Shown here: positions 44,592-49,876 of the stretch, piece by piece
Numbering within the stretch: position 1 is the first letter of the stretch
How the letters are laid out: every line of letters starts with the position of its first letter
Source of the DNA: an uncultured Bacillota bacterium
GTDB taxonomy: Bacteria > Bacillota_I > Bacilli_A > RFN20 > CAG-288
Length of the DNA stretch: 64,000 nucleotides
Direction of reading: 5' to 3'
NCBI GenBank assembly: GCA_949299015.1
Contig: CASFYT010000007.1
Location: 12,636-76,635 of the forward strand
Notes under the pieces: model-generated
What the model saw: only the letters and a program-made list of their open reading frames with translations
Databases searched by the model: none
Told to the model about the DNA's origin: nothing
Translations under genes and position numbers: made by a program

Positions 44592-45707
44592 ATGAAAAAA
44601 GAAACGAAACCGTGGAACGCCGTGCTGCGCTTCTTGATTGGCGTCGGTGGCGGAGCCCTTTCCGCCCTGCCGGGCTTCCAAAGCGACGACTATGCCGAGA
44701 CCTTTTCGCTGACGAAGCGGAAGGAAAAGGGACTTCTTTCCACCTTCCTCCGCCAATCTTTGTATGCGTTGGGCTTCCTCGTCGGATTTCTCCTCTTCTT
44801 CCTCGTCCCGGTCCAGGAACTCGTGACGGGCTATTCCTTCGCCATCACCTGCCTCGTCCTCGCGCTCTTCCTTTCCTTCGCCGCCTATGACGTCTATCGC
44901 CTGGTGTTGGCGAAGGACAAGAAGAAGCATCTGCTCCCTTCCGCCCTGCTTTTCCTGGTTCTCTTCTCCGTTCCCTTTCTTCTTCACTTCTTTCCCATCG
45001 ACTGGGCGGCGCAGACGCAGACGATGTTCCTCGTGCTCGTCTTCCTTCTTGCCGCGTTCTCTTCCTTCCTTTCGTTCTTTGCCGGAATCTCCCCAGGTTC
45101 CTGCTTTCTTGTCACGGCGGCCTACCTTCCCCTTTCCGAGCGCCTCTTCGGCATTGTCCGATTGAATTTCGAAGGACAGGCGATGTTTTTGGCTGTCCTG
45201 GTCATCGGCTTTTTCCTTGGATGGATTCTTCATCTTCCGCTTCAGAACCGAACGCTGGAAATGGAGAGGCATTCCACCAATCTCGGCTTCTCCTTGGCGA
45301 TGATGGCGACCATCTTTGCCTTTTCCTTCGAACCGACCTTGGAGATGGGAGCGACGACGTCGGTCGCGGCTTCCTTCTTCATCCTGATGGGCTTGATCCT
45401 CGGCGGAATCGGTGTTGGTCTGGCCTTCACGGCCCACGGCTATCGAGCCCTCTCTCCGATTGAGAAGGAGGAGAAGGCCGTCCTGCGGAAGGAAGCGACG
45501 CCCCAGGAGGCTCGTCGCGTTCTAGGCGCCCACTACCGCGCCCTGCTGCTGGAAGGTCTGCTCGTTCCGGCGATGAAGGTCGATCAGACGAAAGTCTTCC
45601 ATCCGATGGAAAGGACGGGGTCCGAAGGAGAGAAGAGCGAAGAAAACGAGGGCGGCATCGACCTTTCGAGGCTCAAGGCCTTGGAGGAGGAGATGAAGGG
45701 ACGATGA
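44592..45707 (+). CDS. Hypothetical polytopic membrane protein with charged C-terminal tail
   Basis: 371 aa, ~8 hydrophobic segments. Stop overlaps the next gene's start (ATGA). No family recognised with confidence. Confidence 0.55.
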   Translation: MKKETKPWNAVLRFLIGVGGGALSALPGFQSDDYAETFSLTKRKEKGLLSTFLRQSLYALGFLVGFLLFFLVPVQELVTGYSFAITCLVLALFLSFAAYDVYRLVLAKDKKKHLLPSALLFLVLFSVPFLLHFFPIDWAAQTQTMFLVLVFLLAAFSSFLSFFAGISPGSCFLVTAAYLPLSERLFGIVRLNFEGQAMFLAVLVIGFFLGWILHLPLQNRTLEMERHSTNLGFSLAMMATIFAFSFEPTLEMGATTSVAASFFILMGLILGGIGVGLAFTAHGYRALSPIEKEEKAVLRKEATPQEARRVLGAHYRALLLEGLLVPAMKVDQTKVFHPMERTGSEGEKSEENEGGIDLSRLKALEEEMKGR

Positions 45708-46423
45708 GACTGGACCGTTTTCTTTCCCTTCACGGATTCTCGAGTCGAAAACAGGCGAAGAAGATCGTTCGCGACGGACGGATTCAAATCGATGGCGTCG
45801 TCTGCATGGACTATACCCGTTCCATTGATGGAACGAACAAGGTCTTTTTCGATGGAAAGGAGATTGAGAATCTTCCCTACGTCACCTTGATGATGAACAA
45901 GCCGGAAGGCTATCAGTCCTCCATGATCGACGAGCGGTATCCTTCGGTCATGAACCTTGTTCCTGATCAATACCGAAAGCGCGTTCGCCTTGTCGGAAGG
46001 CTGGACAGCGATACGACCGGACTCCTTCTACTGACCGACAACGGCATCCTCAACAGTCGCTTGGCCAATCCCAAGCATGGTGTTCCCAAGACCTACGAGG
46101 TCCTAGTCAATCATATTCTGCGTCCGGACCTCGCGGAGCGCTGCAAGGAACCGCTGGACATCGGCCGTGGGGAGATCGCCCACGTCGATGAGCTTGAAGT
46201 CCTTGATGAATCCCATGCCCGAATCACGGTCCACGAGGGCAAATACCACGAAATCAAGAGGATTTTCGGAAAGTTTGGGTACGACGTGCTGGAATTGAAG
46301 CGGATTCGGCTTGGTCCTCTCTCCTTGGGCGACTTGGAGAAGGGACAGTGCCGCCTTCTGACCGAGGAAGAATACGATTCGCTCCTCTCTCTTGTCCGTT
46401 TGGCAAAGAAAGACCTTCTGTGA
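45704..46423 (+). CDS. RsuA/RluB-family pseudouridine synthase
   Basis: S4 domain MRLDRFLS..G.SSRKQAKKIV.DGRI..DG and the catalytic GRLDSDTTGLLLLT motif. Confidence 0.88.
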   Translation: MRLDRFLSLHGFSSRKQAKKIVRDGRIQIDGVVCMDYTRSIDGTNKVFFDGKEIENLPYVTLMMNKPEGYQSSMIDERYPSVMNLVPDQYRKRVRLVGRLDSDTTGLLLLTDNGILNSRLANPKHGVPKTYEVLVNHILRPDLAERCKEPLDIGRGEIAHVDELEVLDESHARITVHEGKYHEIKRIFGKFGYDVLELKRIRLGPLSLGDLEKGQCRLLTEEEYDSLLSLVRLAKKDLL

Positions 46424-46529
46424 GGGGACGGAAGACTCATCATATTTTGATAAATACGCTCAAAAGGTCAGGGAGAGACGGGCACAAAAAAAGACCCAGT
46501 GACACAATTCAACAATTGCGGCTGGGCCT

Positions 46530-47175
46530 TTTCATCCGATGGACGAACAGTCTTCGTTATTTGTCGTGATGGTTGAAGCTCCCTTCTGGCAGAGGTGTTC
46601 TGCCAAATGACGTCTCTACTCGAATTCGGATCGACACGGCTCATCTCATCTCGGAGAAGTCTCGACTCGTCTCGTATCAACAAGGTGCAGGATTCTTCCG
46701 TTTGTCCATCGGATGTCGAATCGTCCTGTTCCTCCTGCCCGAAGTCTCGTCTCGACTTGTCCCTTCTCTTCGACTGGTCGACACATCCCTTCCCGTCTCC
46801 GATCGTCTGTGACAGTCTCTTTTGCCATGGCTTGAATCCCCGAAAGGACTGTCGCTTCCCAATCTCGTTGTCCTGGAATTACGCCTCTGATCTTCGTTTC
46901 GCCTTGCGATTCTCGCTTGCCGTCCGCTTGTCTCTGGAGGAGGAAGGATTCATCGACGAACGTCCCAGCACCATTCGAAGATGTTCGCACTTCGCTCCGC
47001 CAATCTTGGCAGCTTAGCCAACAGGGGGAAGGAAAGAAACGATGGTCAGGAAGGAAGACCAAATGCCGAATTCTCAGGATTCAAGAGGTGGACAAAACAG
47101 CTCGTCTCTGCATCGAAAGGGTAGACGTCTCGACTATATCATGGCCAATGATATCAAATCAGGAAGACTCTCGAC
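46530..47175 (-). ncRNA. Candidate large structured non-coding RNA (family unknown; strand assignment tentative)
   Basis: ~650 nt with no credible ORF in any frame. The minus strand is purine-rich. 12-nt perfect long-range complementarity between 46533-46544 and 46704-46715, extendable to 16. Local hairpins at 46589-46605, 46811-46853 and 47135-47155. The GTCTCGAC motif occurs 3 times in the same orientation, plus one variant copy (CTCTCGAC). The region lies directly downstream of the Crh-like gene with no intervening terminator. Confidence 0.3.
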
Positions 47176-47451
47176 TTAGAAGATGTACTCGTGGCAGAGC
47201 TTATCGAAGCCCTTGACGGCTTCTTCCTCATCCTCTCCTTCGCATTCGACGGTGAGGACGGATCCAGGCGTGATGGGTTCGACAGATACGAGGGCGAAGA
47301 CGTTGAGGATGGACTTGAGGTCGCAGGTCTCACCGCTTTCTCTCTTGAGTCGAACCTGGCATTCGTGATGGTTGGCTTCTTCGACGAGTTCGGCGCAGGA
47401 ACGAGAGGTGAGTCCGCCCATATCGGTGACTTTAATTTCGTAGGTTGTCAT
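47176..47451 (-). CDS. HPr-family protein lacking His15 (Crh-like)
   Basis: MTTYEIKVTDMGGLTSRSCAELV..: the position equivalent to the HPr G-I-H15-A-R-P site reads G-L-T-S-R-S. The Ser46 context KSILNV is conserved. 91 aa from the ATG at 47451. Confidence 0.8.
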   Translation of the reverse strand: MTTYEIKVTDMGGLTSRSCAELVEEANHHECQVRLKRESGETCDLKSILNVFALVSVEPITPGSVLTVECEGEDEEEAVKGFDKLCHEYIF

Positions 47452-47473
47452 GAACTTTATTTTTTCCACCTAT

Positions 47474-47502
47474 ATTATAAGGCGGACTGAAAGCGATTAC
47501 AA
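47474..47502 (-). promoter_or_regulatory. Sigma-70-type promoter for the Crh-like gene
   Basis: On the minus strand: TTGTAA (47502-47497), 17-nt spacer, TATAAT (47479-47474). Confidence 0.5.
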
Positions 47503-47652
47503 CTAAAAGACAAAAAAGATGTTGAAAAGATGTAAAAAACTAGAAAAAAGCAATGATATTAGACGCTTTGTCTAATTGCCTTCCGTTGTCGTGCTTTTTG
47601 CGCAAAAAGACAGGAATAATCGTCGGGAAGAACTGGCTCTCATCGGGAAAGA

Positions 47653-47661
47653 TGGTATAAT
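47653..47661 (+). promoter_or_regulatory. Extended -10 element upstream of galU
   Basis: TGGTATAAT lies ~30 nt upstream of the AGGAGG RBS and ATG at 47692. Confidence 0.4.
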
Positions 47662-47691
47662 CAATTCAGCGATTTGACGTAGGAGGTTCCC

Positions 47692-49787: not shown

Positions 49788-49876
<89 letters not shown>

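Follow-up and report, generated by a model that had tools for sequence, protein, structure and literature searches.

The 64-kb stretch of DNA analysed here, referred to below as the window, comes from an uncultured Bacillota bacterium and contains, at 46485-47175 on the minus strand, a non-coding element with no conserved reading frame that lies directly downstream of a gene for an HPr-like protein. The element has conserved ends, and between them a body of variable length built of repeats with a period of five nucleotides (nt). Judging from sequence comparison, we tentatively propose, at somewhat less than an even chance, that it may be the non-coding tail of the HPr-like transcript, or a small RNA (sRNA) derived from that transcript, which would carry many sites for an oligomeric RNA-binding protein. 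Coordinates are window positions, the element is read on the minus strand, and L-numbers denote the loci fetched from relatives. The gap that holds the element extends for ~750 nt from the stop of rsuA (plus strand, 45704-46423, stop at 46423) to the stop codon of the HPr-like gene (47176-47178). The initial annotation of this gap had proposed a large structured RNA and had missed the 5-nt periodicity.

The body of the element (46610-47114, minus strand) consists of in-phase runs of a pentamer, G-[A/G]-[G/U]-A-[C/A/U] (G-R-K-A-N), for example GAGAC, GAGAU, GAUAC, GGGAC and GGGAA. The runs are densest at 46630-46800, and GAGACGGGAAGGGAT at 46785-46799 is an example from the window. Hexamers built on such units were strongly enriched: GATACG was found 38 times against 2.0 expected, GAGACG 32 times against 2.6, and GGGACG 28 times against 2.9. 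The distance from one motif start to another was 5 nt in 96 cases, 10 nt in 45, 15 nt in 15 and 20 nt in 14, and in 11 of 11 long copies of the element the identity at a lag of 5 nt reached 0.30-0.39 compared with a baseline of 0.22-0.25, with echoes at 10 and 15 nt. The unit is anchored on G1 and A4 only, position 2 being A (54%) or G (38%), position 3 G (65%) or U (28%), and position 5 C (40%), A (32%) or U (25%); in-phase triples of the form G..A. occurred 56 times, against 3.9 ± 1.8 in shuffled sequences. Pentamer runs were found on the minus strand only, with none on the opposite strand. The longest tandem runs comprise 11 units (L085), 9 units (L004 and L104) and 8 units (L006), and all runs of at least four units in the 865 kb of fetched loci lie inside the element.

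In the window copy itself, the signal at lags of 5 and 10 nt (46530-47130) had a z value of 3.7, which was reached by none of 500 dinucleotide shuffles, and the three highest-ranking 300-nt windows of the whole 64 kb lie in this copy. Tandem Repeats Finder reported nothing for the element because the repeats are too degenerate. Three copies of GTCTCGAC, correctly placed by the initial annotation at 46659, 46749 and 47127 along with the variant CTCTCGAC at 47168, turned out to be the plus-strand view of GUCGAGAC members and belong to the same pentamer motif family. The plus strand is indeed pyrimidine-rich, as had been remarked (55% over 46530-47175 and 62% over 46600-46950), and the purine-rich minus strand is the strand that is read.

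A search with RsuA against species-representative genomes gave ten relatives (L002-L011, "Candidatus Enterosoma merdigallinarum" among them) with RsuA identities of 59-89% and G+C contents of 33-53%, and a metagenome scan with the 5' hairpin of the element as the pattern gave 13 loci. In 10 of these 13, an HPr-like gene precedes the motif by ~90 nt; L083, L084 and L093, the remaining three, have no such gene and were discarded as chance matches inside coding sequence. Further contigs with HPr-like homologues contributed short forms of the element and a single additional long form. The HPr-like gene and the element directly downstream of it were found together in at least 12 distinct relatives of 32-55% G+C, which answers the question of synteny raised by the initial annotation, and the gene is the constant upstream neighbour in every relative that carries the element. 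In most of the RsuA-identified relatives, rsuA is followed by one or two small genes on the plus strand, then by the terminator, several hundred nt without conserved open reading frames (ORFs), the minus-strand HPr-like gene and galU; the small plus-strand genes have no Pfam domains and are missing from the window. The element is specific to Bacilli of the RF39 or "Candidatus Enterosoma" type. Bacilli of the RF39 type have reduced genomes, are abundant in the gut and have not been cultured. A search of the published literature gave no description of such an element, and it appears to be undescribed so far.

Three small lineage-specific genes flank the element in relatives (L002-L011, L094-L105), none with a Pfam domain: one encodes a CxxC...CxxC zinc-ribbon protein of ~170 amino acids (aa), another a ~125-aa protein with an FWKR...YED...KFFL pattern, and the third a 170-190-aa protein downstream of the terminator. 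All three are absent from the 64-kb window, 46424-46485 included.

The length of the element ranges from ~160 nt (L103 and L006) to ~890 nt (L088). The body takes up 100-700 nt in the different forms and does not align between clades; by blastn, conservation beyond the closest species is limited to the two ends of the window region. Such behaviour might be expected of a passive long 3' untranslated region (UTR), whose function, in stability or termination, would reside in the 5' hairpin and the terminator alone, the body being a neutral product of replication slippage, a decaying microsatellite with no sequence-specific role. The extreme variation in length, the lack of the element in L100, the degenerate window copy and the poorly alignable body are all in keeping with this explanation, as are tandem expansions confined to single lineages: close relatives differ in their arrays, as illustrated by a GGGAT x4 expansion in L104 compared with L004. 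However, the same motif class, strand and phase recur in genomes of 32-55% G+C even though the arrays are not homologous position by position, and neutral decay would not preserve this pattern. Moreover, such arrays occur nowhere else in the 865 kb of the same genomes, and the G+C content of the body (~0.53) is gene-like, as opposed to 0.36 in the true intergenic spacer at 47450-47690. We consider a purely passive UTR rather unlikely.

The body is set in a fixed frame composed of a 5' hairpin, a CCCUUUC box, a 3' hairpin with a GAAGGGAG box, and a conserved terminator. No other part of the element is as well conserved as the intrinsic terminator (46485-46531, minus strand). It comprises an A-rich flank, the stem GGCCCAG/CUGGGUC, an inner stem CAAUU-GUUG-AAUUG and a U-run, and its core AUUGUUGAAU is invariant. 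In the comparison of its copies, 95.3% of cells pair and 7 of the 16 pairs show compensatory changes, a result reached by 0 of 500 shuffles. The initial annotation had seen only a weak hairpin at ~46490-46530; in the minus sense it is in fact strong, with a predicted energy of -21.7 kcal/mol compared with -14.4 kcal/mol in the plus sense. The U-run is invariant, whereas the A-run required for plus-sense termination is not. With its G+C-rich stem-loop, U-run and compensatory stem, 46485-46531 has the properties of a Rho-independent terminator read in the minus sense. The terminator energy, the invariant U-run and the G-U wobbles of the 5' hairpin described below establish minus as the sense strand of the element, the same as for the HPr-like gene.

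Upstream of the terminator, the 3' hairpin UGGCAGA-ACACC-UCUGCCA is followed directly by the GAAGGGAG box (46579-46605, minus strand); its GGCAGA/TCTGCC arms had been reported before and lie at 46588 and 46599. The stems of this hairpin, read by eye and not scored, vary by clade with the pairing kept (TGGCAA/TTGCCA, TGACC/GGTCA, TTGTGC/GCGCAA and GTAAC/GTTAC), and in the long forms the hairpin always abuts GAAGGGAG or a close variant. At the other end of the body, sequence comparison revealed a GUCGAGAC box followed by a conserved ACCCUUUC box (47115-47134, minus strand). The sequence ACCCTTTC is kept in most long and short forms, and CCTTTC was counted 14 times against 0.6 expected. A unique pairing partner for the CCCUUUC box was sought in GAAGGGAG and in the 5' flank of the terminator and was given up, as several GAAGGG sites pair equally well.

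The 5' hairpin, (U)AUAUCAU-UGGCC-AUGAUAU(A), lies at 47136-47154 on the minus strand, and 95% of cells pair among 17 sequences. The hairpin that the initial annotation placed at 47135-47155 is therefore present, with the correction that its left arm is TATATCAT rather than GATATCAT and that its stem has 7 base pairs (bp). No compensatory changes were found among the 17 sequences; covariation is lacking because the stem is nearly invariant. Near-invariance that includes the loop could also point to an element acting at the level of DNA, that is, a 19-nt near-palindrome, ATATCA(T)TGGCCATGATAT, serving as an operator, possibly over a promoter, to which a DNA-binding protein would bind as a dimer, with the repeats as a DNA-binding array. 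The palindrome overlaps TGATATAGT, which on direct reading resembles an extended -10 sequence, and in L095 and L097 (3343-3361) it is reverse-complemented, with ATCATGGCCAATGAT in place of ATCATTGGCCATGAT; such an inversion would seem odd for an RNA loop of conserved sequence and would be expected of a symmetric DNA site. Nevertheless, the only stem variants, in L098 and L103, are A-to-G changes that give U-G wobbles in minus-sense RNA and would give A-C in the other sense, so that they are legal in the minus sense only. In addition, the repeats are confined to one strand and are located between a gene and the terminator of that gene, and the last T of the -10 sequence is replaced by A in 5 of 17 copies. 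A DNA-level role is, in our estimate, very unlikely.

The initial annotation held that the gap contains no plausible coding frame, and this stands despite ORFs of 138-140 aa on both strands (46646-47062, minus; 46595-47017, plus), which have no Pfam match. The window contains 111 ORFs of at least 150 aa, many of which overlap each other on either strand as antisense 'shadow' ORFs; hence ORF length alone is no evidence of coding in this genome. An independent gene caller left the gap empty on L001, a near-identical contig (99.98% identical). A six-frame comparison with 10 relatives revealed no preferred frame: all frames are equally similar to those of L002, the closest species, while the other species match at the ends of the element only. 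The body also has a periodicity of 5 nt, not 3. Thus, the region displayed neither the frame-specific conservation nor the protein-family match of a protein-coding gene or pseudogene.

It is likewise extremely improbable that the region is a decayed gene or the remnant of a mobile element. This explanation draws on the 138-140-aa ORFs and on the one to three small genes that lie between rsuA and the element in relatives and are missing from the window, but these genes coexist with the element where they occur, and tblastn (E <= 10) detected no trace of them in the window region, an outcome that speaks against the decay envisaged in the initial annotation. No match to the region was found in plasmid and phage collections. 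A pseudogene or an insertion sequence remnant was consequently rejected on the Pfam, tblastn, plasmid/phage and six-frame evidence.

Comparison of the sequences between the GAAGGGAG box and the terminator revealed a possible micro-ORF of 12 codons, AUC ACG ... GGA UGA (ITTNNEDCSSIG*), at 46532-46570 on the minus strand. It starts with AUC or AUU 8 nt after GAAGGGAG, spans 9-13 codons across genomes and stops ~6 nt ahead of the G-C-rich core of the terminator stem; its final codons coincide with the 3' arm (46533-46544) of a long-range helix described below. The frame is kept in L002, L004, L104 and L010, where indels are multiples of three, and several differences are of the synonymous type, including TCG/AGT. 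The micro-ORF has no canonical start codon, and its features are no more than suggestive of translation.

Such an arrangement might belong to a cis-regulatory leader or attenuator, in which the element, the micro-ORF and the terminator would control read-through into the 170-190-aa gene downstream on the same strand; in the window, the gene would have been lost and the leader left as an orphan. This gene follows the terminator in 7 of ~17 distinct genomes, in L085 and L103 a promoter would hardly fit between the terminator and the ribosome-binding site, and the micro-ORF, with its stop just before the terminator core, is kept in five genomes. However, in the window and in the majority of carriers the terminator is not followed by a gene on that strand, and the next gene is convergent. 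The micro-ORF, which has no canonical start codon, is restricted to one or two clades, and a TATAAT-like box 6-7 nt before the downstream ATG in L004, L008 and L104 suggests that the gene has a promoter of its own. We therefore regard attenuation as an unlikely explanation. The TATAAT-like boxes are situated at ~7131-7175 in L004, ~7162-7190 in L008 and ~1415-1437 in L104, and no Shine-Dalgarno sequence was seen in these three loci; together with the short distance to the ATG, this suggests a leaderless mRNA for the 170-190-aa gene.

Two further helices are found inside the element. A central hairpin, GACAGUC...GACUGUC, encloses GCCAUGGC (46811-46853, minus strand) and is present in the window, where its arms are at 46811 and 46847, as had been noted; compensatory counterparts occupy the same place in L002 (GGCAGUC/GACUGCC) and L004 (GCAGC/GCUGC), as read directly from alignment columns 328-372. 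A 12-bp long-range helix with the 5' arm CAUCCGAUGGAC at 46704-46715 (minus strand) and the 3' arm at 46533-46544 closes a 3' domain of ~230 nt and is found at the same position, with differing sequences, in the window and L002, in L004 and in L010; other clades have different long-range helices. This is the perfect 12-nt inverted match at 46533/46704 that the initial annotation considered rare by chance. The match extends to 16 nt at 94%, and 58 of 3000 dinucleotide shuffles (~2%) give a non-overlapping 12-mer inverted repeat. All the motifs that the annotation listed were recovered, displaced by no more than one or two bases if at all. Several helices are kept through sequence change, namely the 12-bp long-range helix, the GACAGTC hairpin, the hairpin that precedes GAAGGGAG and the terminator, and the RNA is thus partly structured, without a conserved ornate architecture.

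The latter distinction bears on the possibility of a large ornate RNA, ribozyme-like or ribonucleoprotein-like in the manner of OLE, ROOL and GOLLD, in which the whole ~650 nt would form one conserved architecture. The size is right, no ORF is present, the sense strand is purine-rich, and the four helices named above, including a long-range one that holds its place while its sequence changes, are as such an RNA would have them. Variants of OLE RNA, variant 2 among them, have been reported from the RF39 clade (PMC11332333), so the host lineage is shared, as is the nature of a non-coding RNA of several hundred nucleotides. Nevertheless, at the Rfam 15 gathering thresholds nothing was found in the region, and the search of 46350-47300 at E <= 10 returned only noise (a microRNA, a snoRNA and small leader models). 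With five homologous loci at E <= 1, only the terminator hairpin gave a match, a sub-threshold one to ctRNA_p42d. The Rfam search covered the covariance models of OLE, ROOL, GOLLD, HEARO and raiA, the families singled out in the initial annotation, and none of them matched; ARAGORN found no tRNA or tmRNA. The OLE fold is long, conserved and ornate, the element has no such fold, and no oapA-type gene neighbours it.

Folding energies also failed to favour an ornate RNA. The minimum free energy of the whole molecule is ordinary in comparison with shuffled sequences (z = -1.2 in the minus sense and -1.0 in the plus sense), and RNAalifold on three and four close relatives gave covariation terms of +4.9 and +1.9, which are unfavourable and provide no net support. 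In this alignment, the helix arms of L010 were misaligned by MAFFT. The body does not align between clades, the long-range helices depend on the clade, and the length varies more than five-fold, with the short forms retaining the ends only; neither the conserved size nor the multi-helix architecture of OLE, ROOL, GOLLD, HEARO or raiA was found. An ornate RNA is about as unlikely as an attenuator. What remains of the structured RNA proposed by the initial annotation is a non-coding region that is conserved in position and partly in sequence, with several helices kept. The ornate fold does not, and neither does the size class, given lengths of ~160-890 nt, one relative without the element and a body of unalignable degenerate pentamers. 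The comparison by BLASTN and covariation that it had recommended was similarly divided: the ends are conserved and the terminator has compensatory changes, but the body did not align and the RNAalifold terms were unfavourable.

We return to the proposal of a multivalent protein-binding RNA, which rests on the strand-specific 5-nt register, on a motif class that is kept across a wide range of G+C content while the arrays turn over, on the confinement of the arrays to the element, and on their poor fit to a single fold. No terminator was detected between the HPr-like gene and the element in the window, in agreement with the initial annotation, or in any genome compared; the HPr-like transcript should therefore run through the element, and would continue as a non-coding tail. 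Alternatively, an sRNA may be started or processed at the conserved 5' hairpin. In either case, an RNA-binding protein that is oligomeric or forms filaments would engage the repeats, one subunit per pentamer, and this might titrate the protein or control what becomes of the transcript. We thus infer transcription through the region, protein binding and a regulatory outcome.

The RNA segments recognised by TRAP (Bacillus trp leader, trpG and trpP) resemble the element in that an intrinsic terminator is preceded by short purine triplet or pentamer units, spaced at 5 nt and confined to one strand. Crystals of TRAP reportedly contained the RNA (GAGAU)10GAG, and the GAGAUGAGAUGAGA runs of the element are the same string as this (GAGAU)n RNA; runs in relatives reach 9-11 units. 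TRAP is described in two reports as binding 11 (G/U)AG repeats (PMC3064811, PMC4027176). Compared with a TRAP site of 9-11 (G/U)AG repeats with 2-3-nt spacers, the element shows clear 5-nt phasing and attains 11 units in L085, but many of its units are not (G/U)AG: the unit here is G-R-K-A-N, with GAUAC and GGGAC as common as GAGAN. Furthermore, its arrays are dispersed across 150-800 nt within a 3' region, in contrast to the single 53-nt block in a 5' leader, and there is no link to tryptophan genes, except for a trpS-type gene 1.4 kb away. Repeats overlapping an antiterminator in the 5' leader of trp-related genes, as in the TRAP system, were not found here.

CsrA acts on the GGA repeats of CsrB. 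With CsrB and RsmZ the element shares a non-coding nature, a terminator at the end, many copies of a short purine motif and a copy number that depends on the species, and GGGA-containing units (GGGAC, GGGAA and GGGAU) make up ~1/4 of its units. In contrast, the motifs of CsrB are located in hairpin loops with irregular spacing, whereas the units here are tandem with a 5-nt phase and, by motif composition, most have no GGA. RsaC of Staphylococcus aureus is a long sRNA released from the mntABC 3' UTR (PMC6765141). It recalls the element in being an atypically long RNA from the 3' end of an operon, in the variable length of its repeat region and in its conserved 3' part, which is structured independently (PMC6765141). 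It differs in that it has no sequence relation to the element, its repeats are longer units located at its 5' end, and it works by base pairing.

Several observations weigh against the proposed binding platform. A tblastn search with Bacillus subtilis MtrB (TRAP, PF02081) as the query found no credible TRAP-like sequence in the window and the 865 kb of loci. The unit is degenerate, and GAUAC and GGGAC are outside the (G/U)AG of TRAP. In the window copy, runs comprise no more than 2-3 units, and a strict 11-unit phase count does not set it apart. In L100, the HPr-like gene is followed after a 33-nt gap by the next gene, with no element between them, and the element is thus dispensable. Some long-range helices are kept within clades, which makes the RNA partly structured, and tandem slippage can create periodic repeats without any function.

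A more far-reaching version of the proposal, which we consider doubtful, is that the element may represent a new class of regulatory RNA, whose G-R-K-A-N array, variable in length, would wrap around or thread a ring-shaped or filament-forming protein. The TRAP principle would then occur a second time, independently, and here in association with an HPr-like protein that has lost His15 but retains Ser46. To the best of our knowledge, almost no regulatory RNAs are known from RF39-type Bacilli, and a phased pentamer code is otherwise known only from the TRAP system. If the proposal is true, the code would point to an unrecognised RNA-binding regulator, carbon-status signalling might be linked to RNA-protein titration in genome-reduced gut Bacilli, and the element would be a natural example of multivalent protein-binding RNAs that grow and shrink by tandem duplication. 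On the duller reading, too, a conserved 3' UTR frame, consisting of a hairpin and a sequence-specific terminator, surrounds a fast-evolving repeat body, and an element of up to ~900 nt is kept beside a signalling-type HPr-like gene.

The HPr-like gene (47176-47451, minus strand; Pfam PF00381, E = 6.6e-15) encodes 91 aa from its ATG. Alignment to solved HPr and Crh chains showed that the phospho-accepting His15 is replaced by Thr (GGLTSRS instead of GLHTRPA), while the Ser46 motif (LKSI) is retained; a GGLTSRSSAELVEEANHH stretch is nearly invariant among the homologues. The protein is very acidic. A consensus scan predicted a promoter-like site, TTGTAA-17-TATAAT (10 of 12 matches), upstream of the gene at 47474-47502 on the minus strand, which is the likely start of the transcript that would enter the element. 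Between the stop codon of the gene and the 5' hairpin lies a spacer with a GTCGAGAG copy (47156-47175, minus strand), which measures 20-100 nt in relatives. Across the element, 47155-47169, on the 5' side of the hairpin, and 46549-46563, in the micro-ORF region, form a 15-nt long-range match that is 87% complementary. Its five hairpin-side bases are AUUUG/CAAAU in the window and CGUUG/CAACG in L002, both of which pair; the match was not seen in L004.

A dif site, oriC, a G-quadruplex, a CcpA cre site and a Fur-type box were considered for the region and dropped, since the sequences do not fit. Elsewhere in the window, 44592-45707 (plus strand) encodes a predicted membrane protein of 371 aa without a Pfam family, which overlaps the start of rsuA (ATGA) and is 31-57% identical to its counterparts in the closest relatives. 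The only Rfam match at gathering thresholds in the 64 kb is a bacterial small signal recognition particle RNA at 49789-49873 (plus strand), with a score of 56.9 bits.

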